64,000 nucleotides of DNA from a virus: the UHGV virus genome UHGV-0036853; one strand, given 5' to 3'. How positions within the stretch are numbered: position 1 is the first letter of the stretch; each line of letters starts with the position of its first letter. The translations under genes and the position numbers were made by a program. The notes beneath the pieces were generated by a model, which did not search any database, was not told where the DNA came from, and saw nothing but the letters and a program-made list of their open reading frames with translations. Below are positions 4,864 to 39,418 of the stretch, piece by piece.

Positions 4864-5239
4864 AGTGATATATCCATACTTATTTTTACGTATTAATTAT
4901 ATCAAAGAAAGGAGTGTTATTTTGTTTAGGAGAGAGTTTTATTAGGGTGCAATAGGTCGAATGTTACATGGTTCAGTGAGTCGTAAACTTTTGCTTCATG
5001 GAGTGGTTTTCAACCTGACAATTTTTTTGTTAATATCAATGAGCTACTTGCATTTTGCTCCGATGATGCAACGTTAGTTATTGAGTACCGCAGGACATGT
5101 GGGAATTAACGCCTGTGGAGAGAACGGTCAGATAGGATCACTCATGGAAGCAGGAACTCTTGTTCGTTAGTACATAGAGAATGTCAATACTGAAATTGAT
5201 TCGTAACTGCTCTTTTTCTATATAGTTGAGGATATTACG

Positions 5240-6017: not shown

Positions 6018-9000
6018 CTATGTCTTAATAGTTTCTGCTACGTCGGCTAATATCGCTTCTAGTCGTTCTCCCTCTTCAGGTCTGAAGTAAAGAATGTTGG
6101 GGTTAAACCCGTAAAAGACAGTAACGTCAAGGTCTGGAAGATACTCCTTCCTGCCGACTAAATCGGATGGCTTGTTTTTGTTGTTAAACATTGCCGTTGC
6201 CCGGCTGCCACACGTCAGCACATAGGTCGGACGCACCAGATTGATCTCTTCACGCATAAAGTCGGTGAACTGGCCGATCTCGTCTTTGGTGTAGTCCTTT
6301 TCTTTGTCTTTCACCTTTTTGCAAACGCCTGTGACATAGAGATCGCCCATGCGCAAATCCCCAGCCGTCAACAGCTTGGCCTTAAAATCGTCGTATCCGT
6401 TTTCCATAAAGTAACCGGTTCGAGCATCATTGCCGTTCGCATTGTCCAGAATGATCATGATTTTCGGCTTAATACCAATGCTGGGGCGGATTAGTTCATC
6501 ACCCAAGCCCATTTCAGCCGCCATCCGTGTCATGAGCACGTTAATCTCAGCCGAACGTTTGGGGTTCATCTCAAACGGACGTGAGGCTTTAACTGCATCT
6601 ATGACAAGGTTTCCCATCAATTCAGCCTGGTCGCGGAGGCGCTCTGGATCAGTTGCTGGCAGACTACCTGGCTCGATGGATGCAAACGCCCCTACTTTTT
6701 GCAGCGATTCGCGCACTCGACTATTACAGGCACGTTTCTCGACAGCTTCTTCGAATTGCGCAAGTGATTCGAATTTGCCGCCAACCTTTTCTCGCGCTCT
6801 CATGATGGCCAGGCAGCCATTCTCAGAACACCCTTTCACAGCAGAGAAGGGCGCATACAGCACCTGGCTACCATCTTCAAGCGTGCGGATCTCGATTCGG
6901 TTAGATGACACGTTAACGTCTGGTGGCAATACGCGAATACCATAGGTCAGCGCATCTTTAACCAGCCCCTGGTGTTTATCTTCGCCAAGAATAGTGAGAG
7001 CAGCAGCGAAAAACTCTGCGGGATAATGAGTTTTCAACCACATAGATTGATAACTGATTAAGGAGTAAGCAACAGAGTGTGATTTGTTGAACTGGTAGGC
7101 ACCATTCTTTTCGAATGCGGTCCAGATCTCCTTCGCTTTCATCTCTGATAGCCCTGGATGTGACGCTGTAACGCGTACTGCGTTTATAGGTAGTTTTGCG
7201 CCGTACTCAAGTGCCTCTTCGACAGTTTTCAGAGTTCCGTCTTCGCATTTAAAATGTTCCGCACGGTGAATGCGCTGTGTAGTGCCATCTTCCAGCTCAA
7301 CGTCTATCCAGCCAGCTTGAGCCTGAACGATGAACTTCTCGCCCATGCTCTTCATTTTTTCCATGTCTTTTTTGCCGATCGCTTTACGAACGCCGTCAGC
7401 TTCAGCCATTGTGAAGCCAGCAAGCAATCGAGTCGCGTTCATCGTCTGTTCCTGATAGAGAATCACGCCATTTGTTTCTGCGGTAAGTTCATCAAGAACG
7501 GGGTGTAATGATTCCGGCGTCATAAAGCCTTTGGCGACAGAAACATAATCATCCAACATGCCTGACTGAATTGGTCCCGGCCGGAAGAGCGCAGTCGTAG
7601 CAACGACCGTTTTAAAGCTCATTGGCTCAATTCCACCACCTAAATCTTTAAGCAGCTTGCGCATTGGGCCTGATTCAAGCTGGAAAACACCTTGAGTGTA
7701 CCCAGCAGCAAAACCATCCAGCACCTTGCGATCTTCAAGAGAAATGGCATCAAGATTGATATCTTCACCTCTGTTCTCTTTTATGTAGCGTTTTGCACTA
7801 TCGAGCAAATCGAGAGTTGCTAGGCCAAGCACGTCCAGCTTAATTAGGCCCATAGCCTCGCAGTAACGCTTGTCAAATGCGATACAACGCGCGTCACCAC
7901 GTCGTTCAACCGGTGTACGTTCTGTCAGAGGAACACCTGCTACGATCATCCCTGCCGCATGTCTACCAAAGCCACGCATAAGGCTTTGTAACTTGCAGGC
8001 TGCATTGAATGCATCAGGGTATTTTGTCGCGTATTTGTCGAGACTTGCCAGTTGTTCGCGCAGCTCCTCCAATGGAAGGCTATCATCCTCGACGTTCTTC
8101 AGTTCTTTTGATACCGCCATATCTGCGGACTCCACACCATAAATACGAGCGGTGTCACGTAGTGCAGAGGCCGCGCCCAGGTAGGTGAAGTTCGGAATGC
8201 CTGCAACGTAATCTTCGCCGTAGCGTTCATTCAGATACTCGATCACCTCATGGCGACGTGCCTGGCTGAAGTCCAAGTCCGCATCTGGCAAGTCGAGACG
8301 CTCAGGGTTGATGAAACGCTCAAACAGAAGACCGTGACGGATTGGGTCGACGTTGGTTATGCCTATGCACCACGCCACCAGAGAACCGGCAGAGGAACCA
8401 CGACCAGGCCCAACGGGAATGCCAGTTTCACGACTATGATTCATCAGATCGCGCACCATCAGGAAGTAACCACAGAATCCCAGGCGAGTAAGCGTGTCCA
8501 TTTCGTACTTTAGCCGCTCAACATAAACCCTGTTCTCAGAAGCTGGTGGTGTGTAGCCAAACTCTTTTGTGGTAAGACGTTTACGCAGCCCTGCAACAGC
8601 CAGTTTCATCAGCGTTGCAGGTTCGTCGTCTGCCATCTTGGGCAGTGCTGGTGGCAATTCATGCCAGCGCCATGTACAGGCTTCGATAATGGCGTCCTGC
8701 GTTGTTGAGGCCATTGCAGCTGTTACCGGCACATCCATGCGAACGGAGAAGGCTTTAAGCGCCTCAAGGAGATGGCGGCGACCATTGACGGCGTTATCTC
8801 GCTGGTGGGGGATACGCAGACGATGCGGCTGGTCGATTTTGATGTTGTTCGTAACCATGTGCGCAATGTCTTTAATGTCTGCATCGTCGATCGATTCGTA
8901 ATAAGCGGGATAAAACGCTACTGGCTCTATTTTCAGTGCGCTGGCGACTTTCATCGCCCGGAAGTTAATCTGGTCGTAGAATGGGGTAGGGTGCGGATAA

Positions 9001-9536
9001 ACCACACTATAGAAGTTGTCTTTTCCACCCGCTGTAATCAGTGTGCTTATAATTTTTGCAAAATCGTTGCGTTGGAACACGCTACCGATGTCGGAAGTGA
9101 GCAGGATGATGTTGCCTTTGGCATATGTAGAAACCAACTGTTCGAGCGAGAGACGCGGTACAAAGTAGAACTGTTCTCGTGTGTTGGCCACCGTCATTAG
9201 TTCGCAGATGTCGCGATATCCTTGCTCATTTTTAATTAGAGCGGTAAACGAGTAGTTACGTCCTCGCTCTAATGATTCCATACATCCCTTAGACTCTTTA
9301 GCAAGTTTAGCCCGGTACTCGTATGTGGGATCATCAACGATATTTAGTTTCACACCACAAATAACCGCCATGTCGTCACCAGCGGCACGTTGTAGTGGAA
9401 TAACACTCGCAATATTCATGCTATCTGCTGAAATTACAGCGGTGTAGCCAGCTTCTCTGGCAATCTTCACCGCGTTTTCCGCTTTTAACGCCGACTCCCC
9501 AAGTGAGAAGTCAGTTCGAACCATCAGTGCCTTCAT
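6018..9536 (-). CDS. DNA polymerase III alpha subunit homolog (DnaE-type replicative polymerase)
   Basis: 1172 aa; PHP-like N-terminus, catalytic region with LDLPDADLDF (PDxDxDF-type motif), C-terminal OB-like region. Confidence 0.85.
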   Translation of the reverse strand: MKALMVRTDFSLGESALKAENAVKIAREAGYTAVISADSMNIASVIPLQRAAGDDMAVICGVKLNIVDDPTYEYRAKLAKESKGCMESLERGRNYSFTALIKNEQGYRDICELMTVANTREQFYFVPRLSLEQLVSTYAKGNIILLTSDIGSVFQRNDFAKIISTLITAGGKDNFYSVVYPHPTPFYDQINFRAMKVASALKIEPVAFYPAYYESIDDADIKDIAHMVTNNIKIDQPHRLRIPHQRDNAVNGRRHLLEALKAFSVRMDVPVTAAMASTTQDAIIEACTWRWHELPPALPKMADDEPATLMKLAVAGLRKRLTTKEFGYTPPASENRVYVERLKYEMDTLTRLGFCGYFLMVRDLMNHSRETGIPVGPGRGSSAGSLVAWCIGITNVDPIRHGLLFERFINPERLDLPDADLDFSQARRHEVIEYLNERYGEDYVAGIPNFTYLGAASALRDTARIYGVESADMAVSKELKNVEDDSLPLEELREQLASLDKYATKYPDAFNAACKLQSLMRGFGRHAAGMIVAGVPLTERTPVERRGDARCIAFDKRYCEAMGLIKLDVLGLATLDLLDSAKRYIKENRGEDINLDAISLEDRKVLDGFAAGYTQGVFQLESGPMRKLLKDLGGGIEPMSFKTVVATTALFRPGPIQSGMLDDYVSVAKGFMTPESLHPVLDELTAETNGVILYQEQTMNATRLLAGFTMAEADGVRKAIGKKDMEKMKSMGEKFIVQAQAGWIDVELEDGTTQRIHRAEHFKCEDGTLKTVEEALEYGAKLPINAVRVTASHPGLSEMKAKEIWTAFEKNGAYQFNKSHSVAYSLISYQSMWLKTHYPAEFFAAALTILGEDKHQGLVKDALTYGIRVLPPDVNVSSNRIEIRTLEDGSQVLYAPFSAVKGCSENGCLAIMRAREKVGGKFESLAQFEEAVEKRACNSRVRESLQKVGAFASIEPGSLPATDPERLRDQAELMGNLVIDAVKASRPFEMNPKRSAEINVLMTRMAAEMGLGDELIRPSIGIKPKIMIILDNANGNDARTGYFMENGYDDFKAKLLTAGDLRMGDLYVTGVCKKVKDKEKDYTKDEIGQFTDFMREEINLVRPTYVLTCGSRATAMFNNKNKPSDLVGRKEYLPDLDVTVFYGFNPNILYFRPEEGERLEAILADVAETIKT

Positions 9537-9720
9537 GTGTTTTTACCTTTCTGGTTTTTTTGATTTTGTCATTGGGGAAGCCTACGAACTTCCCATGCAT
9601 CGAAATCGCAACTTCTTTTGCTGATTGGTGACAATCGGGCTTGTCTGGACACACCAGACAAGCCTTACCAGTTTCAGAAGCAGCGATAAGAGAGCCGAAA
9701 CATCCTTTACGCACGATCAA
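9511..9720 (-). CDS. small Cys-rich protein, possible zinc ribbon
   Basis: 69-aa ORF with CLVCPDKPDCH between the cobS-like and dnaE-like genes; overlaps the dnaE start. Confidence 0.3.
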   Translation of the reverse strand: MIVRKGCFGSLIAASETGKACLVCPDKPDCHQSAKEVAISMHGKFVGFPNDKIKKTRKVKTHEGTDGSN

Positions 9721-28358: not shown

Positions 28359-28589
28359 TTATGGCACTTTTCTGCCCCATCCACACAATCGCTCCCCAAT
28401 CATATTGTGAAAAAGCACCTCTCTTTCAGTCTCTTCGGTCATGAGATCATCACGGCTGATGTATAGCGGTGTAGCCGCATCGCAGAAAAGCACACCAGCG
28501 GGTTGAGGCTTAATCACGCAACCACTTATTGTGCAACTCATGATGAACAGTAGAAGCATCCTTGCGCCGTAACTCATCAAGTGTTTCAT
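28359..28589 (-). CDS. o-spanin (Rz1-like outer-membrane lipoprotein), embedded in the i-spanin gene in another frame
   Basis: Internal start region MKHLMSYGARMLLLFIMSCTISGC (lipobox ISGC) within the 28359-28667 ORF. Confidence 0.5.
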   Translation of the reverse strand: MKHLMSYGARMLLLFIMSCTISGCVIKPQPAGVLFCDAATPLYISRDDLMTEETEREVLFHNMIGERLCGWGRKVP

Positions 28590-28761
28590 TTTTGACGTCC
28601 ACTGTGCTTTGAAGTCGTTTCCTGTCTTCCTGTTTTGCCTTCTCTTCCATTGCTCGTCGCGCCGCATTTCCGCCCATCGTGTAAGCGCCGACCAGAACGA
28701 AAAGAACGGCAGCCAGCGTAATCAAAGCAACTTTTAGCTTTGTCATCAGGCTGCCTAGCAT
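28510..28761 (-). CDS. i-spanin (Rz-like)
   Basis: 83 aa; N-terminal TM then charged helical periplasmic domain. Confidence 0.5.
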   Translation of the reverse strand: MLGSLMTKLKVALITLAAVLFVLVGAYTMGGNAARRAMEEKAKQEDRKRLQSTVDVKNETLDELRRKDASTVHHELHNKWLRD

Positions 28762-28762
28762 A

Positions 28763-29482
28763 TTAGACCATCCCTTTCTGGTGTCTTCTCACCTGCGACC
28801 AGGCGATAAATCCAGCCACAACAATAGTGGCAATACCGAAGATGATGCGTACTGTATCCCCGCTAGAGATATGACCTTGTGCTTTATCCATAGCAGCGGA
28901 AACCTGCGGCATAACATCGGCCAGCTGCGCCAGACCAATACCTGCTGTAACAGTTGCGCCTGCTGTTTCTTTAGTTACAGGAACAGCCTTCACGGTTTTC
29001 ACCGGCTTAACGACGCCAGCTCGACGCAGACCTTCCTCAATAACTTCTGCCGCATACCAGGTGTTCAGCGTTTTTAGCGGACCTCGCCCATTCTCATGGC
29101 GAATGATTGCCTCAACCAAAGGTCGAAGAATGTCGTAATCATGCAGATCGATAATCATGTCTGCGGTTACACCAACGGCTTTAGACACCTCATTAATGTA
29201 GGCGTCAGTGTTGTTTTCATTCGGCGGTGCCCAACGTTCAATAACTTCACGAATGGTATCGATACTTGAGCCGTCTTTTGCGCGACGTTTGTCGTGGTAG
29301 GTAATTAGAGTCACCGCCAGCGCACGAATCCCCCAAACAGGGTCTTTAAACGTGCAAAAGCGCGGTTCGTCTGGATTCGCAACCAGACCTTGCCACGGTG
29401 ATCCTTTATCAAGATTACCGGGGTTATTATTACGAATGCCTCTCGGAGTCTTCATCCTTGATCTCCTGTTATTGCAGTCCAT
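28763..29482 (-). CDS. putative peptidoglycan hydrolase (endolysin-like) with C-terminal membrane anchor
   Basis: 239 aa; motif GIRNNNPGNL recalled from phage muramidase-like proteins; C-terminal TM IIFGIATIVVAGFIAW; position in lysis cassette. Confidence 0.45.
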   Translation of the reverse strand: MDCNNRRSRMKTPRGIRNNNPGNLDKGSPWQGLVANPDEPRFCTFKDPVWGIRALAVTLITYHDKRRAKDGSSIDTIREVIERWAPPNENNTDAYINEVSKAVGVTADMIIDLHDYDILRPLVEAIIRHENGRGPLKTLNTWYAAEVIEEGLRRAGVVKPVKTVKAVPVTKETAGATVTAGIGLAQLADVMPQVSAAMDKAQGHISSGDTVRIIFGIATIVVAGFIAWSQVRRHQKGMV

Positions 29483-29804
29483 TTTTTACGCCATACGCGG
29501 CTAACCCCAAAAGCAGTGCAGTAATAATGAACGACGTTATTTTAGAAACAATGCCGCCAAAGAACCCACTGGAGATGGAATCTAACCGGTTAAGGAGCTT
29601 GTCCAGATTGGAGTGTTGAATACTATGTTGCGCCGGGGTCATATCACCAAAGTAGGTTTTCAGCTGATCATTGACCTCCTGGCCAATTTCTTCACGTAGC
29701 TCTTTACCTAATTTGCCAACAACCTCCCGAGCAACGATCGCGGCAATACGCTCAACTTGCTCTGTTGTAACGCCCGCCATCTCGTTCGACATGTTTTCCT
29801 CCAT
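29469..29804 (-). CDS. putative holin/antiholin
   Basis: 111 aa; C-terminal TM segment; directly upstream of the hydrolase. Confidence 0.4.
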   Translation of the reverse strand: MEENMSNEMAGVTTEQVERIAAIVAREVVGKLGKELREEIGQEVNDQLKTYFGDMTPAQHSIQHSNLDKLLNRLDSISSGFFGGIVSKITSFIITALLLGLAAYGVKNGLQ

Positions 29805-29873: not shown

Positions 29874-30107
29874 TCATTCAGCATTGCAACGGACTGATGA
29901 GAAAGCACCTACTCCTACCCATCGCCAGTTATAGATGCTACCCGCTTTGTATAAGGTATAGTCGTTCACTTTTTTAACAGCATATATGGGTATGACTGTC
30001 TCCTGTCCACCAATGATAGCCTCACCATAACATATAGGTGTCGGCAATTTCTGGCAGCCAGTAAGAGAGAGAACAACAGCTATTGTTAGAAATAATCTTT
30101 TCATCAT
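29874..30107 (-). CDS. small lipoprotein (candidate Cor/Llp-type superinfection exclusion protein)
   Basis: 77 aa; lipoprotein signal MMKRLFLTIAVVLSLTGC; sits just downstream of the tail fiber genes. Confidence 0.55.
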   Translation of the reverse strand: MMKRLFLTIAVVLSLTGCQKLPTPICYGEAIIGGQETVIPIYAVKKVNDYTLYKAGSIYNWRWVGVGAFSSVRCNAE

Positions 30108-30114
30108 TTACTCA

Positions 30115-30723
30115 TCAGTTATACAGATTTCTATTTATTACCGGTACTCTGCCATTTACGCTAAAACTATGGCCGCCATTAAGTTGGTTTACGAATATCG
30201 AGCTAACAGTATTTCCATATGCCGCATATCCATAAACCATTGTCATGGCTCCGCCCGGTACTGGAACAGCGAACACATTCGCATATGTTGGGATTATCGC
30301 TGGTGGGTAATCAAAAACATGCCCTCCAGAGCTGTTCCACTCCGTATTATTAAGAAAGGTAAATGAAAGTGGGATATTTGCCGTATTATAGATTTCCTCC
30401 CCTTGTGCATTGAAAAAACTCATGCCCCAAGTTTCTTTTTTGGCTATACCTTTCGAAAATACGTATATCGTGGCACTAGAGTCGCTACCCTGACCTCCGA
30501 AACTGTAAATCACCTGGTTGTTACGCACTATTCTGTTGGCTATTAATGAAACAGCTTTCGAATAGGCAACAAAAATCATCGGTGAACGATCTGGAGATAT
30601 TTGGGTGTTAAACTCTGTCCCGCCGGACAAAGAAACAACCTGCTTTCTCTGAAAAACGATAGGAGACAAAGAAGGAGACATCCAGACCTTCCCGTCAGAT
30701 CGATATATCTTGCTTCCGTACAT
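30115..30723 (-). CDS. tail fiber-associated protein (distal fiber or assembly)
   Basis: 202-aa ORF coupled (TAATG) to the upstream 84-aa ORF, downstream of the side tail fiber. Confidence 0.35.
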   Translation of the reverse strand: MYGSKIYRSDGKVWMSPSLSPIVFQRKQVVSLSGGTEFNTQISPDRSPMIFVAYSKAVSLIANRIVRNNQVIYSFGGQGSDSSATIYVFSKGIAKKETWGMSFFNAQGEEIYNTANIPLSFTFLNNTEWNSSGGHVFDYPPAIIPTYANVFAVPVPGGAMTMVYGYAAYGNTVSSIFVNQLNGGHSFSVNGRVPVINRNLYN

Positions 30724-30977
30724 TATTTTTGAAAAACCAATATGTTTAAATTACCACTAGCTCCAGACCATGAAATGGTATTTCCAGAAACCGTAAGACT
30801 TGTGTATTTCCCATTGGTTACGTCCATTATGTAATAGTCGATTCCCAATCCCGCCTCAACATCATATGTTCTACTTCCAGAACCAGAGGGAGTAAAATAA
30901 TCGAGGTAATAAACAGGGGCCAACGCATCGACCATCTCCTGTCTTGATGGCGACCAAACCTGTGCACCATAGCTCAT
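30723..30977 (-). CDS. tail fiber-associated small protein
   Basis: 84-aa ORF. Confidence 0.35.
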   Translation of the reverse strand: MSYGAQVWSPSRQEMVDALAPVYYLDYFTPSGSGSRTYDVEAGLGIDYYIMDVTNGKYTSLTVSGNTISWSGASGNLNILVFQK

Positions 30978-31067: not shown

Positions 31068-34000
31068 TCAGTTGCTTGTTGCCCCAACAGTACCGGCAAA
31101 TTTCAGCCATTGACCTGACGGACTTCTATTACTACGGTAGTGATAAACGAGGATTGCGTTTGTCACTCCACCGTAGTCAGCTTTATGTGACGTTGTTAAA
31201 CGAATTGTATAATCACCGTTAGGTAGATTAAAAACTTCGATTATAGATTCTGCTAATTCTACAGCACCAAATCCCGTTATATTGTTGATACTGCCAGCAT
31301 TGAATCCCATAGCATCGCCAAAGCCAATCCAATAACTTTTGCTAAATGCCCCATTTGATTTAAGGTGGCTAATGAATGTGGACAAACTCATGCCCATATC
31401 CCCACCAGAAACAGAGGAAGTTCGCACAGTCATGCTTGGAAGAGAACTACTCTTCACATAGGAACTGAGAAGGTTTGTTACCTCTGTTTTCGTATAAGCA
31501 TTAAGGTTAGCCGCAGTCAAAGTTATATCGGCAGAGCCATCAAACGCCACACCAGCAATTTTCCTTGCTGTCTGCAATTTTGTGGCGGTTGCAGCATTAC
31601 CAGTAGTGTTCTGATTACCGGTCGTATTCACACCAGGTAAGTTAATATTGGCTGTACCGTTAAAACTAACACCACCGATAGTACGAGCCGTTTGTAACTT
31701 CGTGGCTGAAGCTGCGTTACCAGTCGTATTCTGATTACCCGCTATATTAACACCCGGCAAGTTAATATTGGCGGTACCATTAAACGACACACCTCCAATT
31801 GTTCTGGCTGTCTGCAACTTCGTTGCAGAGGCTGCGTTGCCAGTAGTGTTCTGATTACCGGTGGCATTGACACCTGGAATAGAGTCTTTGGACGTATAAA
31901 CTTGCGCCCATTCAGACCAACTGGATGCATCCGTATCTCGTCGCGAACGTACATGTACAGGCGCATGAGCACCACTTGTACCGCTCCAACCTATGAACAA
32001 CTCACCTTCACCAACGGCCGTTGCGCCCTTAAGATGAAGCACATTCCCGTAAGTCGAAGGGTAGCCATTGTTATATGCCTCGTACATCTGCAATCCAGTC
32101 GCAGCACCTTGTGTTGTACCGGTGAGCGCAGTAACGCGTCCTCTGGACGTAATTGTTGGTATTGAAATATTCGCAGAGCCGTTAAACGACACCCCGTTAA
32201 TAGTTCTAGCAGTTTGCAACTTGGTCGCTGTGGCCGCGTTACCGGTAGTGTTCTGATTACCGGCAGCATTAACACCAGGCAAATTAATATTCGCAGTGCC
32301 ATCGAAGCTAACACCACCGATGGTTCTTGCTGTCTGCAATTTAGTAGCTGTAGCAGCATTACCTGTGGTGCTTTGGTTGCCAGCTTTGTTAACTCCGGGC
32401 AAGTCGATGTTGGCAGTTCCGTTAAATGAAACGCCACCAATCGTTCTTGCCGTTTGAAGTTTTGTAGCGGTTGCGGCATTACCAGTAGTGCTCTGATTAC
32501 CTGCCGTGTTTACACCAGGCAAATTTATGTTCGCAGATCCATCGAAGGCCACGCCGCCGATAGTTCTTGCAGTCTGCAATTTCGTGGCGGTACTCGCATT
32601 GCCATTCAATGAACCAGTTAATCCACCAGTAACAGACAACGGACCTGAAACCGTCCCTCCTGATGTTGATAATGCACCTATATCCGATGGCGTAGGTTTG
32701 TATTTTGTATTGTAGTCTCGTCGCCAGCCTGGAGAATAATCTGTCCCGTGGTTAATATAAGTAAATTGAGCGTTAGCAGTACCACCACCGCTAGATGTTG
32801 TTGGTGTGGTAACGCGGATCGTCATTGCTGACTTTATCCCCATTACCTCAATTACTGCCCCGGCAAGATGAATATTGCCACAACCAGTATCAGTAATGAT
32901 TTTGTTGTTGCCATACGACCATGAGCCTTTACACATCCAGTACGGATGATTAAACGCCCCTTGAGAGTCCAACCATTCGACAAACTGTGCCGTAGTCCAG
33001 TTTCCTGCTGTTGTACTTACAGAGCCTCCAAATGCTCGCCCAGCGCCAATATTTTTCGTGAAGGTATCCTTACCTGGTATATCAGCACCATTCTGGTTCT
33101 TCGCCAATCGGCTATTCGCATTGTCATTCGCAGCTTTAACTGCCTTTGGAGTTGCAGCCAGTGATTCGCTGGTGCTATCGACAGCACTGCTAAGTTTCAC
33201 AACACCTTTAGTTGTAAGGCTTGCGTCTTCCATCGCAACTGCACCGGCAATCTCTTCAGCACGATCAGCGGCAGCTTCTGCACGGGTCGCAGCGGATTCA
33301 GCAGCAGTTTTGCTCTGAGATGCAGCCGTCGCACTGCCTGCCGCCTCTGTTGCTTTCGTGGATGCCGTTGAAGCACTACCCTTCGCAGCTGATGCCTGCT
33401 TGGTCGCCTCATCCTTTGAAGCAGACGCCGAGGTGGCTGATGCTGACGCAGAACTTGCAGATTCAGCAGCCGCAGTCTTAGAGGAAGCGGCATTGTCTTC
33501 TGAAGACTTTGCATTTGTTTCAGAGGTTTTCGCTGCTGATGCTGAATTTTTAGCGGCTGTAGCCTGATTCGTCGCCTCAGTCGCTTTTGCGGTAGCTGTT
33601 GCCGCTGATGACGACGCGCTTTCCGCAGATTTTCCTGCCGCAGTTGCACTTGATGAAGCACTATCCGCACTTGCTGAGGCTGCGCTTGCTGACGCTTCTG
33701 CCGCAGATTTCGAACTGTTTGCAGACGATGCACTCTGCCCGGCTGCCGTTTCAGATGCTTTTGCGTTTGTCTCTGACGCTTTTGCTGCCTTAGACGAATT
33801 TTCAGCTTCTGTTGCAAATGATGCCGCCGCGTTTGCACTCGATGAAGCGTTAGCCTCTGATGCTTTAGCCGCATCCTTAGATGCAGAGGCACTGGACGCA
33901 GATGTGGCCGCCTCCGATGCTTTAGTCGACGCTACAGATGCTGATTCTGCTGCCGCGACATATGCTGATTCTGCGTTCGTTTCAGATTTTTTCGCAGCAG

Positions 34001-34595
34001 TTGCACTCGCACTTGCAGCACTTTGTGAGGATTCCGCAGCGGATGCACTTTGAGACGCTTGAGAGGCTTTTTCTCCAGCGGTATTGGCGCTTTCTGCTGC
34101 TGCGGCAGCACTGGCCGCCGCCTCACGAGCTTTGTCGCCAGCAGCGTCAATCGCATCGGTGTTATTTTTATACCACTCAACGTTTTCGTTGTGCTCGTTG
34201 ACGATCTGCATCAGCGGCTTAACGGTCACTTCTGTACCGTCTTCACGCTCGATTGTCACCTCATCCAGCGCAGTCAACCAACTGCGCATGGACTTGGAAT
34301 CAGCCGACATACGCGACATTAGCGCAGTAAAGCGCGCGCTAAACTGTGTTAAGTCGCCTTCATAGGTCGTAATGATTCGGCACGGAACTTCAGACTGAGT
34401 TTCGCCGGTATAAGGTTCTGAGAGAACAATATTCGTATCGCTTGTTACGCGCTTGATCTCATACAGCTTATTGTCGGGGCCAATGACGATCATCCCCGGC
34501 AACACACCATTAGCTGTTACGTTCCAGGCTGTCCCAACCCCAACCAGAGTATTGCTACCCTGTGTAAATGTGATAGTACCTTCCCTGTACCACAT
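31068..34595 (-). CDS. side tail fiber protein with tandem ~38-aa repeats
   Basis: 1175 aa; Ala/Ser-rich coiled region; at least 8 repeats of GNQNTTGNAATATKLQTARTIGGVSFNGTANINLPGVN. Confidence 0.8.
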   Translation of the reverse strand: MWYREGTITFTQGSNTLVGVGTAWNVTANGVLPGMIVIGPDNKLYEIKRVTSDTNIVLSEPYTGETQSEVPCRIITTYEGDLTQFSARFTALMSRMSADSKSMRSWLTALDEVTIEREDGTEVTVKPLMQIVNEHNENVEWYKNNTDAIDAAGDKAREAAASAAAAAESANTAGEKASQASQSASAAESSQSAASASATAAKKSETNAESAYVAAAESASVASTKASEAATSASSASASKDAAKASEANASSSANAAASFATEAENSSKAAKASETNAKASETAAGQSASSANSSKSAAEASASAASASADSASSSATAAGKSAESASSSAATATAKATEATNQATAAKNSASAAKTSETNAKSSEDNAASSKTAAAESASSASASATSASASKDEATKQASAAKGSASTASTKATEAAGSATAASQSKTAAESAATRAEAAADRAEEIAGAVAMEDASLTTKGVVKLSSAVDSTSESLAATPKAVKAANDNANSRLAKNQNGADIPGKDTFTKNIGAGRAFGGSVSTTAGNWTTAQFVEWLDSQGAFNHPYWMCKGSWSYGNNKIITDTGCGNIHLAGAVIEVMGIKSAMTIRVTTPTTSSGGGTANAQFTYINHGTDYSPGWRRDYNTKYKPTPSDIGALSTSGGTVSGPLSVTGGLTGSLNGNASTATKLQTARTIGGVAFDGSANINLPGVNTAGNQSTTGNAATATKLQTARTIGGVSFNGTANIDLPGVNKAGNQSTTGNAATATKLQTARTIGGVSFDGTANINLPGVNAAGNQNTTGNAATATKLQTARTINGVSFNGSANISIPTITSRGRVTALTGTTQGAATGLQMYEAYNNGYPSTYGNVLHLKGATAVGEGELFIGWSGTSGAHAPVHVRSRRDTDASSWSEWAQVYTSKDSIPGVNATGNQNTTGNAASATKLQTARTIGGVSFNGTANINLPGVNIAGNQNTTGNAASATKLQTARTIGGVSFNGTANINLPGVNTTGNQNTTGNAATATKLQTARKIAGVAFDGSADITLTAANLNAYTKTEVTNLLSSYVKSSSLPSMTVRTSSVSGGDMGMSLSTFISHLKSNGAFSKSYWIGFGDAMGFNAGSINNITGFGAVELAESIIEVFNLPNGDYTIRLTTSHKADYGGVTNAILVYHYRSNRSPSGQWLKFAGTVGATSN

Positions 34596-34687: not shown

Positions 34688-37600
34688 TTACAGAAGGCCA
34701 ATTCTTACTCGTAGGACGTTGTTATCGTCATAAACGTCAATCCGCTGACCATTTATGACCAGTCGCCCATTACCTCCGCTATTACCGTTGATCTCAAGCG
34801 TTCCATTTTTGCCGAACCGCCATCCAGATCTACCGCTAACAAAATTGGTAGATTGCAGATCGCCTACTTTTGCATTGGTGATTGTGCCATCCTTGATATA
34901 CGCACCATTCATATAGGCGATACTGTTTTCGATAACAAATGGCGTGGTGATCTTCCCGTTAACAGAGTTGACCAAACCAAATCTGTCCGCCTGCACCAAA
35001 AACTGAGAAAGACCGGTGGTGTCGATACCAAGCGCAATACCGGCAACATACTTCTGCCCTCCGCTCGTTGAAGTCTCCATTTTCAACGTCCACGCGGTTG
35101 AGACTTTTTTGTTGGTATCAGCAATGGCCGTTGCCTGCTGTTGAATTGTCGCGGTATTTCCATCCACCTCTGCTTTCAGAGTATCGATTCGCCCACTTAG
35201 AGCATTATCTGCCTGCGTTCTCGCTGTCGTTTCAGTTGTGACCGCCGCAGAAATGTTGGCTGCTGTTTGAGACTCTAAGTTTGTGATTTGAGTCGCCAGT
35301 GCCGCATCTTGCTCTGTACGCGTTTTCGTTTCGGTTGCTACAGCCGCTTTAATATCCTCTTTGTATTGAGAGGTCAGCTTGGTGATCTGAGATGACAACG
35401 CCGAGTCAGCATCAGTTCGAGCCTGCGTTTCAACTGCAACGGCCGCACTAATATCTTTCGCAGTCTGTGCTTTTAAACTTGAAACCTCTTTTGTTAAAGC
35501 GGTATCACCATCTGCACGAGCCGTTGTTTCTCTGGCAAGAGATGCCTCGAGATCATTAGCTTTTGCTGTAAGAGACGTAATCTGAGTGGACAATGCACTA
35601 TCGGCATCAGTCCTTGCCTTTGTCTCTACAGCAACCGCTGCGGCAATATCAGTTCCGGTCTGTGCTCGCAGGCTGTTAATTTCTCGTGAGAGCGCCTGGT
35701 CAGCACTTGCCCTGGCCTCCTGCTCCTGAGTGATGGCAGCGGATATATCACCGTCAACCTTTGACTGAAGCTGGTTTATTTGTTTGGCTAATGCAGAGTC
35801 CCCGCTTGCTCGAGCCTCCTGCTCACTACGTATTGCAGCAGAAATATCATCATCAACCTTTGCCTGAAGTTGGGTGATCTGACTTGCCAGAGCCGAATCT
35901 TCCGTTGCTCGGGCTTCTTGCTCTTCCTTAATAGCTGCGACGATATCGTTGCTTACTTTCGACTCAAGCTGAGTGATCTGTGTCGTCAGAGCTTCATCGG
36001 CAGATGTACGAGCCTCCTGCTCTGTACTAATCGCCGCGCTGATATCTCCTTCAAACTTAGATTGCAGCTGAGTGACACGCTTTGCCAACGCTTCATCGCC
36101 ATCGGCACGAGCGGTGGACTCTTCCAGAATACTGGCCTTAATGTCTTCGCCAATTTCTACGCGAATTTCCTCAACCTTCGTGGCCATTGCAGACATATCA
36201 TCAGCAAAGGTTTTCTGTGTTGTTGCGATCTTCGCGTTATTGACCATCTGCTTGTGCTGGTCTTCATCTTGACGAAGAGCCAGGTCAATATTTGTTTTGG
36301 CTAACGCCTCAATGTTCGTAGTCAGTTCTGCACTGGCACGATCGACCTCTGCAACCGTCTTTTTCATTTCTTCAACAGCAGCGGAGCTTTCCTCTACCGT
36401 TGACTGCAACACTTCCAGTTGTTTAGCGTTTGCAGCATCGCCTTCAACACGAGCCTCGCTTTCCTTAGCAATAAGAGCTGCTGCTTCATCTCTTGCAGCC
36501 TTTATTGCCTCGACTGTATTAGCGAGAGCTTTATCGTGTTCAGATACGGTGTTTTCGATTTCAACAATTGCAGCATCAGTAGCATCAATTTTTTCAAACG
36601 CTTCATTGACCTTGTCGATCGTTGCCGAAACCTCACCTTTAAGCTCGGTTTGTGCGTTCTCCAAAGCATCGCTACGCTCGTTGAATTTTATTTCAAAATC
36701 CGCGAGGTTATCGCTGAACTGCTTATCTAATTCAGCTATATCTTCCTTAACGTCGTTTACCGACCCCTCCAAAGATTCGACGCTCTGGTTGATATGCTCA
36801 TTTAACTCGTCAACTGCTTCTTGAGAGGCTTTGCTGTTGATGTCCTCAAGCAGAGCCTGACCAAGCTCAGACGATGTAATCTTACCTTCCAGGAACGACA
36901 GTACATCGCGAGTTGTCGCCTCTGTACCCAAGTTTGAGTTCGGAGGACTTAACATGCCGCGCTTGTTCGATGCTCGAACCCAGTAATACCACGTTTCACT
37001 ATCCCCAAGACCAGCATGTGTAAAGGTGGTGCTTGCAGACTCCGCGATCAGTTTCGCCGTATCCAGATTGTTGGTCTGGGATGCGTAAACATTAATGTGA
37101 TCAAGGTCTACCGAATCTGGATTAACCCAATTTAGTATCACATTACGATAGTCTCCAACGGCCGTTAATGACGTTGGTGCATCCGGCGGTGTCATTGTGC
37201 CCAGCACCTGATAAACGGTACTGATAATTTCTGTTTTTTTACCGTTGAATGAAACCGCATACAGTTGGAAGTCGTAGCGTCCATTCTCCGCGACATTAAC
37301 GATTTCGTATTGCTCTTCGGTTACACGCGCCGATTGCCAGTTCGATACATTGTTTTCATCAGAACGTCGCCAACTGATCCAATACTCTGGAGATTTCCCT
37401 TCCCATGTTGCAGTCAGTTTTACTGACAGGTTTCCCGGGCTTGAGAGATAAGTCCCTTCAGTGATTTGCAAATTAGATGGCTTGGAGTAAGTCGGGTCCA
37501 ATACCGTCGTATTCTGCGGGATAAGCGTTGCACCATTGTCGATTGCCTCATATTTAGACGGATTGTTCTCAACAGCGGTGATGTCAAAGCTACCCGGCGT

Positions 37601-39418
37601 TTCCCCCTGCGCGATGTTAACGATGCGAACGCGCATAGGTTCGAGATCTGGTTCTGTAATTGTCCAGACACCGTTCAAAACAGGCGTTTCCGCTGACGAC
37701 AGGGCTTTTGAAAACGTAACCTTTGTTATGTTTTCGCCAGTTTCAAGAACATCGCGTTCAACGATTTTGCCTTCCTGATTCAATATCCGAATAAAGCTGC
37801 CGCTTTTAGCTAACGACACAGGCGCATCGAGAGTGATGCTGTTTTTGGTAAACTCCACAATTCGACCGGAGTTACGTTTACCTGCACGATATTTGTTCTG
37901 AATCAGAACGGTTTCACCGGGCATCAGAAATGAGGCGTCTAAGCCGGCAGTAAATGTAATTACATCCGACTCCATTCTGGCGGTATACAAAAGCCACAAA
38001 CCAACTCGGTGAGCCTGGCCTCGGCTTGTACATCCAAATGCTACGACTTCTGTTTTACGCTCACCATAACGGCGCATTGCGTCCTGATCTTCAACGTACT
38101 CGATGTTTTGCTTATAACCGTCCTCCTTGTTGTTGTAGGTCACGAGCGCAACGGATGGGCGATCTTTACGCGCAGAACCTTTATAGGTAAACAGTCCATC
38201 TTTGACGTTGGAGTTGGTAAACATCATTACCGGATCTGATGGGCTATCCTGCATGATGTTAACCATGCCACCAGCCCAAAACACCATGCCGCGGAATGCA
38301 CCGGCAATATCCTGAATTAATCGGTATGCGTCTTGTCGACTGGTGATCTGCGTATTGATTGCAAAGCGTTTCTCTTTACCCCCAAAGCCATCATCGACCT
38401 CTTCGTCACAATATCGACCAATCAGGTAGAGCTGGCCGAGGTCAATCATGGATTCCGACACAAATTGCCCAAGACCATACCGAGTATTGGTAAGCAAATC
38501 GTAGAGAATCCACGCAGGGTTTGAAGAAGACAACAGCTTAAAAGTACCGTCCCATACGCCGACATAAGTATTGGTGTATTCGTTGTAGTTTGACGGCACT
38601 CGAATTTTGATACCGCGCACCAAATACGAACGAGAAGGCATTGTGCTACCAAACTGCTCTGAATTGACCTTTAAGCCAACAAGTGCAGAGTTAGGGTAGT
38701 TCATGGGTGTATCTACAATCTCACCTATGGAATCAACCCATGTGTCGTTGTAGAGGTACTGGCTACTGTTATCATCTGTAAGACGAATCACCCTAACCTT
38801 GTATGCACGACCAGGCTTAGGTAGTTTCAGCTCATAGCTACGGTAATACACTCCTGTTTTCTTTGCCGTTAGCGTGATATCAACGCTTTTCTCACCTTCT
38901 GCCACTACATCAGAAAATGTTGCGTCTCCGTTGGCGATCTGGAATTTGTACTTCACCGTAGTGCCATTTGTATCGCCAGAGCTTTTATCAACGCTACGTA
39001 AAGAGGGGAATTTCATGATGACACGAACGCGATCAGCTTCATCGTTATCGATTGAAACCGTAACGTCGTGTGTTTTTTTAAGCTGAATATTTACGGACTT
39101 AGGCGTTTCAACAAAATCAAAACCAGCCATTGGCGTCTGGTCTTGTGAGCCGTCACGAAAATCCCATGTAATACCGCTGAAGTTGGAAGAGCCATCTTCA
39201 TTCAAGATCGGTAAATCGTCGATGAAGATCGACTTTGCGCCATTTACCAGGCCACCGATAACCCCCTCACCAAGAAGGTCGAGGATGGCTGCCATAGCAC
39301 GAGAATTGACAGTATCATCAGCTTCAACCGGGGTACGGCTGGAGCTTTTACTTTTCTTGCCACCAGCACCGGCAATAAGAAGCGGTAATTTTTTCTTCTT
39401 GAACTGTTCCATGTCCAA
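34688..39418 (-). CDS. central tail fiber / host specificity protein J-like
   Basis: 1576 aa; lambda J-like N-terminus; fibronectin-like region; long tandem coiled-coil repeats. Confidence 0.8.
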   Translation of the reverse strand: MDMEQFKKKKLPLLIAGAGGKKSKSSSRTPVEADDTVNSRAMAAILDLLGEGVIGGLVNGAKSIFIDDLPILNEDGSSNFSGITWDFRDGSQDQTPMAGFDFVETPKSVNIQLKKTHDVTVSIDNDEADRVRVIMKFPSLRSVDKSSGDTNGTTVKYKFQIANGDATFSDVVAEGEKSVDITLTAKKTGVYYRSYELKLPKPGRAYKVRVIRLTDDNSSQYLYNDTWVDSIGEIVDTPMNYPNSALVGLKVNSEQFGSTMPSRSYLVRGIKIRVPSNYNEYTNTYVGVWDGTFKLLSSSNPAWILYDLLTNTRYGLGQFVSESMIDLGQLYLIGRYCDEEVDDGFGGKEKRFAINTQITSRQDAYRLIQDIAGAFRGMVFWAGGMVNIMQDSPSDPVMMFTNSNVKDGLFTYKGSARKDRPSVALVTYNNKEDGYKQNIEYVEDQDAMRRYGERKTEVVAFGCTSRGQAHRVGLWLLYTARMESDVITFTAGLDASFLMPGETVLIQNKYRAGKRNSGRIVEFTKNSITLDAPVSLAKSGSFIRILNQEGKIVERDVLETGENITKVTFSKALSSAETPVLNGVWTITEPDLEPMRVRIVNIAQGETPGSFDITAVENNPSKYEAIDNGATLIPQNTTVLDPTYSKPSNLQITEGTYLSSPGNLSVKLTATWEGKSPEYWISWRRSDENNVSNWQSARVTEEQYEIVNVAENGRYDFQLYAVSFNGKKTEIISTVYQVLGTMTPPDAPTSLTAVGDYRNVILNWVNPDSVDLDHINVYASQTNNLDTAKLIAESASTTFTHAGLGDSETWYYWVRASNKRGMLSPPNSNLGTEATTRDVLSFLEGKITSSELGQALLEDINSKASQEAVDELNEHINQSVESLEGSVNDVKEDIAELDKQFSDNLADFEIKFNERSDALENAQTELKGEVSATIDKVNEAFEKIDATDAAIVEIENTVSEHDKALANTVEAIKAARDEAAALIAKESEARVEGDAANAKQLEVLQSTVEESSAAVEEMKKTVAEVDRASAELTTNIEALAKTNIDLALRQDEDQHKQMVNNAKIATTQKTFADDMSAMATKVEEIRVEIGEDIKASILEESTARADGDEALAKRVTQLQSKFEGDISAAISTEQEARTSADEALTTQITQLESKVSNDIVAAIKEEQEARATEDSALASQITQLQAKVDDDISAAIRSEQEARASGDSALAKQINQLQSKVDGDISAAITQEQEARASADQALSREINSLRAQTGTDIAAAVAVETKARTDADSALSTQITSLTAKANDLEASLARETTARADGDTALTKEVSSLKAQTAKDISAAVAVETQARTDADSALSSQITKLTSQYKEDIKAAVATETKTRTEQDAALATQITNLESQTAANISAAVTTETTARTQADNALSGRIDTLKAEVDGNTATIQQQATAIADTNKKVSTAWTLKMETSTSGGQKYVAGIALGIDTTGLSQFLVQADRFGLVNSVNGKITTPFVIENSIAYMNGAYIKDGTITNAKVGDLQSTNFVSGRSGWRFGKNGTLEINGNSGGNGRLVINGQRIDVYDDNNVLRVRIGLL

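Follow-up and report, generated by a model that had tools for sequence, protein, structure and literature searches.

Genetic evidence has shown that the Cor proteins of phages phi80, N15, HK022 and mEp167 inactivate the TonB-dependent outer-membrane transporter FhuA (bioRxiv 10.64898/2026.03.26.714494; PMC9311878), whereas a structurally proven blocking mechanism belongs only to Llp of phage T5 (PMC9586334). Llp (PDB 8A60, 7QJF) is a small outer-membrane lipoprotein whose termini are tied by a disulfide; its gene, an early one, lies beside pb5 and thus next to receptor-binding genes, it is expressed during lytic growth, and it acts from the periplasmic side to block the receptor of its own phage. 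Rtp45 of phage Rtp (PDB 9RPS), an LptDE-directed exclusion lipoprotein, is likewise encoded in a receptor-binding locus, downstream of gpJ, and acts on its cognate outer-membrane receptor, in this case LptD. Here, we analysed a window of 64,000 nucleotides (the whole stretch considered) from the virus genome UHGV-0036853 and, within it, the minus-strand gene at 29874..30107, which judged by its homology is cor, an ordinary Cor-family member that had already been annotated. Proteins of this family are small phage lipoproteins that lie beneath the outer membrane of the bacterium and shut down a phage receptor, the iron transporter FhuA being the classical case. The window is an SSU5-like Escherichia coli phage-plasmid, and homology together with predicted fold makes it probable that the gene product is a Cor-family exclusion lipoprotein, most likely directed at FhuA.

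The first-pass annotation of this DNA had compared the product with Cor and Llp as an analogy, and our results support that reading through homology to Cor, identity to a RefSeq protein and a predicted fold resembling that of Llp. On the NCBIfam equivalog NF047972 ('phage exclusion lipoprotein Cor') the protein scored 80.7 bits, where 31 is the cutoff, its residues 2-75 aligning with positions 1-77 of the 78 in the profile; it also matched PHROG 1119, 'Cor superinfection exclusion protein', with E=2.3e-30 over residues 2-76. It is 100% identical to RefSeq WP_000977750.1, itself named Cor; the gene was known before and bears its correct name in public annotation, and it is not a new kind of system. 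A tblastn search of 50,697 phage records matched 193 of them, all with at least 80% query coverage. The closest relative in this collection is SSU5_025 of Salmonella phage SSU5 (59%), labelled 'Cor-like superinfection exclusion protein' in the GenBank record of that phage, followed by the Cor of Shiga toxin (Stx) 2 phage 86 (58%), those of HK022 and mEp phages (47%) and those of N15 and phi80 (42%). A homologue search with the single sequence gave only 4 proteins, and the 277 relatives on which the comparisons below draw, many of which carry the name Cor in their source records, came from a profile search.

Alignment of 91 of these 277 homologues showed that Cys18, Cys26, Gly56 and Cys74 are invariant, while G33, G34 and an AGxPFxWxWV core are nearly so, as are A55, W61, W63, V64 and F69. 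The window protein carries the Cys pair and the core AGxxFNWxWV motif that mark the family, as well as the lipobox Cys; its precursor of 76-77 amino acids and its mature part of 60 agree with the sizes expected of a Cor (about 75-80 and about 60, respectively). Along their full length, the Cors of phi80, HK022, N15 and mEp167 are 42-49% identical to it, and the lambdoid and N15 proteins share its size (76-78 amino acids), lipoprotein signal, three invariant Cys and AGxxF(N/S)WxWV motif. Near-identical cor DNA was present in 67 of 5,426 complete E. coli genomes (~1.2%), always on plasmids and never on chromosomes, and the plasmid copies that were inspected carry the RefSeq label 'cor: phage exclusion lipoprotein Cor'.

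The reading frame itself, a 77-codon minus-strand open reading frame (ORF) that begins with ATG, lies exactly where the first-pass annotation had placed it. It is a real gene and not a chance frame, since it has full-length matches to curated profiles, 277 relatives, a RefSeq protein identical to it and mostly synonymous changes between alleles; at the codon level, the synonymous to nonsynonymous changes among close alleles (7:2, 6:1 and 2:2) indicate purifying selection. The full product is MMKRLFLTIAVVLSLTGCQKLPTPICYGEAIIGGQETVIPIYAVKKVNDYTLYKAGSIYNWRWVGVGAFSSVRCNAE. The ORF opens with two consecutive ATGs (30102-30107), and the true start is probably the second of them (30104), which would give a precursor of 76 amino acids, because the homologues all align from the second Met and the first ATG is replaced by ACG in the allele of NZ_CP070135. 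The mature protein is identical whichever ATG serves. The lipoprotein signal with its LTGC motif, also claimed from the letters of the DNA, held up well: the signal peptide (residues 1-17, 30057..30107, minus strand) has a basic n-region (K3, R4), a hydrophobic core and a lipobox L15-T16-G17-C18 (30054-30065), whose Cys is the one invariant in the 91 homologues. The product begins MMKRLFLTIAVVLSLTGC, followed by QKLP..., and cleavage is predicted ahead of Cys18. The sole Pfam match was LPAM_1 over residues 2-19, at 17.3 bits slightly below the cutoff of 20, and Pfam holds no Cor model; the annotation of phi80 cor carries the same lipoprotein processing. What would remain is a mature lipoprotein of 60 amino acids and 6.6 kDa (29877..30056, minus strand) with Gln at residue +2, the Cys26/Cys74 pair and an AG(S/Y)xxNWRWV motif.

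An AlphaFold2 model built on the 91-sequence alignment (mean predicted local distance difference test score, pLDDT, 86.5) consists of a helix for the signal peptide and, after it, five beta strands, and the closest structure to this predicted fold is that of T5 Llp in its FhuA-bound form, with 15% identity in the structural alignment. The top match of the model in BFVD was a Dhillonvirus super-infection exclusion protein (E 3.4e-5), and further matches came from the T5-like phages DT571/2 (an unnamed protein) and slur09 (a named lipoprotein). The model and these matches agree with earlier publications, in which Cor and Llp are said to have a common fold and a disulfide that constrains the termini (PMC9586334; bioRxiv 10.64898/2026.03.26.714494). 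The window Cor would thus resemble Llp in size, membrane location, disulfide, lytic-growth expression, periplasmic block of the phage's own receptor and placement next to receptor-binding genes. It differs in having no detectable sequence similarity to Llp: phmmer against all PDB chains gave no Llp match at E up to 10. Rtp45 was absent from the matches of all our searches, none of which was a direct comparison with it.

If the protein acts as its relatives do, the precursor would be exported, lipidated at Cys18 and cut by signal peptidase II after Gly17, as its lipobox suggests, with Lgt, LspA and Lnt processing it at Cys18 as in established lipoprotein biogenesis. Lol would then sort it to the outer membrane, because under the +2 rule residue +2 is Gln and not Asp. 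The 60-residue mature protein would fold as a small beta domain, and a Cys26-Cys74 disulfide may be expected from the invariant Cys pair and from the Cys11-Cys58 bond of Llp. Homology and fold suggest that it would bind the periplasmic side of a TonB-dependent outer-membrane transporter, most likely FhuA, and the bound transporter would be locked so that its surface loops are unusable by phage receptor-binding proteins. FhuA-dependent phages would be excluded and progeny virions not wasted on cell debris, at the cost of reduced ferrichrome uptake.

Where the gene sits had been described as directly downstream of the tail fibre genes, which is not so, as two small genes intervene. The order along the minus strand is J, lateral tail fibre, an 84-amino-acid gene, a 202-amino-acid gene, cor, holin, endolysin, Rz/Rz1, ParA and a DnaB-like helicase, and cor is the final gene of a known three-gene 'cor cassette'. 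The 84-amino-acid gene (30723..30977, minus strand) comes first; its product matches PHROG 557 (E=1.7e-24), is N15 gp22-like by profile and is 69% identical to SSU5_023. Its stop overlaps by 1 nucleotide the start of the 202-amino-acid gene (30115..30723, minus strand), whose stop in turn sits 7 nucleotides ahead of the cor ATG. The 202-amino-acid product matches PHROG 425 (E=4.5e-49), is a homologue of N15 gp23, phi80 gp23 and T1 ST31 (75% identical to that of SSU5) and is a candidate tail-tip receptor-binding or accessory protein. Neither the 202- nor the 84-amino-acid protein has a transmembrane segment or signal peptide (the two maximum Kyte-Doolittle values over 19 residues are 1.24 and 0.54) or a match in Pfam; PADLOC gave no match for any of the three cassette proteins, and searches of PDB sequences with them gave chance matches only. 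RefSeq and the SSU5 record give the 202-amino-acid gene as 188 amino acids. That annotated start is probably placed too far downstream, since residues 1-14 of the longer ORF (30682-30723) align with the invariant M1, G3, I6 and G11 of N15 gp23, phi80 gp23 and T1 ST31, and since the longer start overlaps the upstream stop by a single nucleotide.

PHROG 557 and 425 are the families of N15 gp22/gp23, phi80 gp22/gp23 and T1 ST32/ST31, which come before cor in the respective phages, and the same three-gene order is found in N15, phi80, T1 and SSU5, so that the position does mirror that of Cor in other phages, as the first-pass annotation had proposed. As in the lambdoid phages and N15, cor is the third gene, after the gp22 and gp23 homologues; in T1 it is on the strand opposite to its two partners. 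In the window the cassette is flanked by the lateral tail fibre gene and the holin gene, unlike that of the lambdoid phages and N15, which directly follows J, and its host element is a circular phage-plasmid of ~110 kb, unlike the lambdoid and linear-plasmid phages. SSU5 has the same gene order (84 amino acids, 202 amino acids, cor, holin) and phage-plasmid backbone; it differs in having an extra Gp38-like adhesin gene upstream. The three-gene cassette was reviewed in a 2026 paper on phage KanT1, which ties it to FhuA-dependent phages and cites Wietzorrek 2006 (PMC13164509). The hypervariable locus downstream of gpJ has been read as encoding a non-covalently attached receptor-binding protein together with accessory and exclusion proteins (BASEL work PMC8594841; bioRxiv 10.64898/2026.04.02.716166). 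In this recent literature, the first pair of genes is regarded as a receptor-binding or accessory module of the tail tip, with cor supplying the cognate exclusion protein.

A different layout is seen in Stx2-converting phage 86, a podophage, where cor (4986-5213) comes directly after a tail fibre adhesin gene and the PHROG 557 and 425 homologues lie 3 kb away (8441-9345), adjoining lom; a PHROG 425 homologue is present in many Stx2a phages. The three genes are therefore separable, and the partner genes are not confined to FhuA-dependent siphophages.

FhuA is our preferred target because the mature window Cor is 45-47% identical to the FhuA-blocking lambdoid Cors, more than these are to the FhuA-directed Cor of T1 (29-34%), and because the full cassette is present, which has so far been reported for FhuA-dependent siphophages (PMC13164509). 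Several observations weigh against this. The FhuA-exclusion phenotype is known only for the Cors of phi80, N15, HK022, mEp167 and T1, not for this allele or the SSU5 Cor, so that FhuA dependence would extend to this lineage by homology. The sole reported receptor of SSU5, as summarised in PMC12312913 citing Kim 2014, is the lipopolysaccharide core, bound by a lateral-fibre adhesin. Cor profile searches also match proteins in BtuB-targeting phages (PMC13164509), and homologues of the 202- and 84-amino-acid proteins occur in Stx podophages without an adjacent cor; consequently neither membership of the Cor family nor possession of the cassette guarantees FhuA as the target. Moreover, the 202-amino-acid protein shares only 19-31% identity with its homologues from FhuA phages, a Foldseek search of PDB with the Cor model gave nothing significant and missed the Llp relationship, the near relative Cyrano (described below) has a distal J 99.9% identical to that of the window yet lacks the cassette, and expression from the plasmid prophage is uncertain, as no promoter of its own was found for cor.

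Some of these observations feed an alternative in which the Cors of the SSU5-type clade, by the same periplasmic mechanism, jam a different outer-membrane receptor, such as BtuB or another TonB-dependent transporter. The Cors of the window, SSU5 and Stx2 phage 86 form their own subclade, with 54-62% mutual identity and 43-49% to lambdoid Cors; the Cor-like proteins of BtuB-targeting phages are reported in Tempevirinae and Markadamsvirinae (PMC13164509); Rtp45 plays an analogous role on LptD; SSU5 has no known protein receptor; and the 202-amino-acid partner is only distantly related to its counterparts in FhuA phages. We nevertheless consider another receptor unlikely, as the equivalog score is far above its cutoff, the protein falls within the sequence range of proven FhuA-blocking Cors and the complete cassette has the FhuA association noted above. 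The J protein was also considered as a guide to the receptor, and this was abandoned: its C-terminus is 30-40% identical to the J proteins of many phages, among them HK022, which uses FhuA, but also Klebsiella, Burkholderia and Pseudomonas phages, and is not diagnostic. Literature searches on SSU5 with Cor or phage-plasmid, and on PhiR41, found nothing useful.

It has also been summarised in PMC9311878, from Arguijo-Hernandez et al. 2018, that the Cor of mEp167 interacts with OmpA, OmpC, OmpF and OmpW, and also with LamB and Slp, and a 2026 preprint on Llp regards the molecular mechanism of Cor as still unresolved (bioRxiv 10.64898/2026.03.26.714494). Cor could then make FhuA unusable through contacts with these proteins, with no direct binding. 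We find such an indirect action very unlikely, given that the Cor fold is closest to Llp, whose contact with the FhuA plug is direct.

With FhuA blocking still the favoured function, the next point is when cor would be expressed. A consensus scan detected neither a sigma-70-like site upstream of the gene nor a terminator-like site in the interval between it and the holin gene; the scan was a simple one, and an internal promoter could escape it. In phi80, cor is an annotated moron with a -35, a -10, a transcription start and a terminator, separated by ~110 nucleotides from the gene before it, the HK022 gene is labelled a moron, and N15 cor has a similar gap and a downstream terminator. The cor of the window, unlike these, follows its neighbour after 7 nucleotides, and neither a promoter nor a terminator was detected, so it does not have the makeup of a moron. 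Since there is no room for an intergenic promoter and the scan was negative, cor appears to share its transcript with the late tail and lysis genes, and expression in the lytic cycle, a 'lytic conversion' in the manner of Llp, seems the likeliest, if weakly indicated, mode.

The same arrangement, with cor 7 nucleotides after the 202-amino-acid gene and 69 nucleotides upstream of the holin gene and with no promoter of its own found by the scan, could point to a lipoprotein of lysis or virion assembly with no exclusion role at all, for example an additional o-spanin, or a chaperone serving the two tail-tip proteins encoded upstream. This is highly improbable. An Rz and Rz1 pair is already present in the lysis cassette (28359-28761, matching PHROG 1026 and 1275), Cor matched no spanin profile, the same lysis genes are present without cor in Cyrano, T1 cor runs opposite to its partner genes, and an exported lipoprotein would be an unlikely chaperone for tail assembly in the cytoplasm. 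The specific candidate of an Rz1-type o-spanin was rejected on account of the separate Rz/Rz1 pair and the lack of a spanin-profile match.

Exclusion through an outer-membrane transporter, FhuA in the first place, therefore remains the function we prefer, and comparison with close relatives of the phage-plasmid shows how the cassette behaves. The cassette region is 99.8% identical in DNA to E. coli plasmid p009_B (NZ_CP048306, 110 kb, non-mobilizable), and over the holin and endolysin the DNA identity is 99.6% with phage Cyrano (pLF82) and 85% with SSU5. Cyrano lacks all three cassette genes (window 29874-30977 against Cyrano 9394-9595), with break points at the start codon of the 84-amino-acid gene and the stop codon of cor, while the distal 700 residues of J (99.9% identical), the C-terminus of the tail fibre (96.8%) and the lysis genes (99-100%) are nearly the same in the two. 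Of the 216 complete E. coli genomes in which an SSU5-like holin occurs, plasmid-borne in every case, 67 have this cor allele and 69 have the Cyrano-type junction without the cassette; in PhiR41_1, other small genes occupy the position. In its backbone proteins the window shares 91-96% identity with SSU5 or the SSU5-like contig L011, whereas Cor (59-65%), the 84-amino-acid protein (67-69%), the 202-amino-acid protein (72-75%) and the distal part of J (61-64%) are far more diverged. From its absence in Cyrano and its divergence, faster than that of the backbone, the cassette behaves as a single mobile, fast-diverging unit that is not tied to a particular J tip, and its divergence together with that of distal J fits a module that interacts with the host surface.

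It is possible, though we put it forward tentatively and with more doubt than confidence, that in SSU5-like plasmids the three genes are an optional plug-in made of a receptor-binding module and its own exclusion protein, gained or lost with no change of the J tip. About one third of the E. coli SSU5-like plasmids carry the cassette, about one third have the clean junction, and Cyrano has a distal J 99.9% identical to that of the window; these figures are what suggest it. Such a plug-in would add a protein receptor, FhuA or another transporter, and not replace one, and cor would be a late-operon lytic-conversion gene and not a prophage moron. Cyrano virions are produced, but the paper describing them used no indicator host, and the infectivity of the cassette-less phage is unproven by it (PMC9928086).

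If the protein behaves like other Cors, the carrier strains (~1.2% of complete E. coli genomes) would be resistant to colicin M and to phages of the T1, T5 and phi80 types, with a lower uptake of ferrichrome, and a Cor-based resistance of this kind could matter for phage therapy and for predicting host range. The presence or absence of the cassette on phage-plasmids that are otherwise near-identical is a natural experiment on the roles of the partner proteins and on whether Cor travels with a cognate receptor-binding protein.

The genes on either side of the cassette are also on the minus strand. Immediately upstream, the lateral tail fibre gene (31068..34595, 1175 amino acids) was assigned from its ORF and its homology to Cyrano. 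Its product shares 85% identity with the Cyrano tail fibre in the N-terminal part and 97% in the C-terminal part, and the middle differs from that of Cyrano, both ends being conserved. Two arrays of 120-nucleotide (40-amino-acid) tandem repeats, at 31537-31874 and 32200-32604, are found in this gene, with the motif GNQxTTGNAAxATKLQTARTIGGVSFNGTANINLPGVN. The J-like central tail fibre or host specificity protein of ~1575 amino acids (34688..39418), recognised as an ORF and by homology, is 97.9% identical to Cyrano J and 30% to N15 gp21, and its C-terminal 167 amino acids are 40% identical to HK022 J. The J gene contains 99-nucleotide repeats (35715-35923) within a long coiled-coil insertion.

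Directly downstream of cor, the lysis cassette (28359..29804) was assigned from PHROG matches and synteny with SSU5 and Cyrano, and comprises a holin (29469-29804), an endolysin (28763-29482, PHROG 873), an Rz-like i-spanin (28510-28761) and an overlapping Rz1-like o-spanin (within 28359-28667). The endolysin, a 239-amino-acid ORF annotated elsewhere as 230 amino acids, has a strongly hydrophobic C-terminal segment at amino acids 213-231, IIFGIATIVVAGFIAWSQV, and a C-terminal position is unusual for a membrane anchor in an endolysin.
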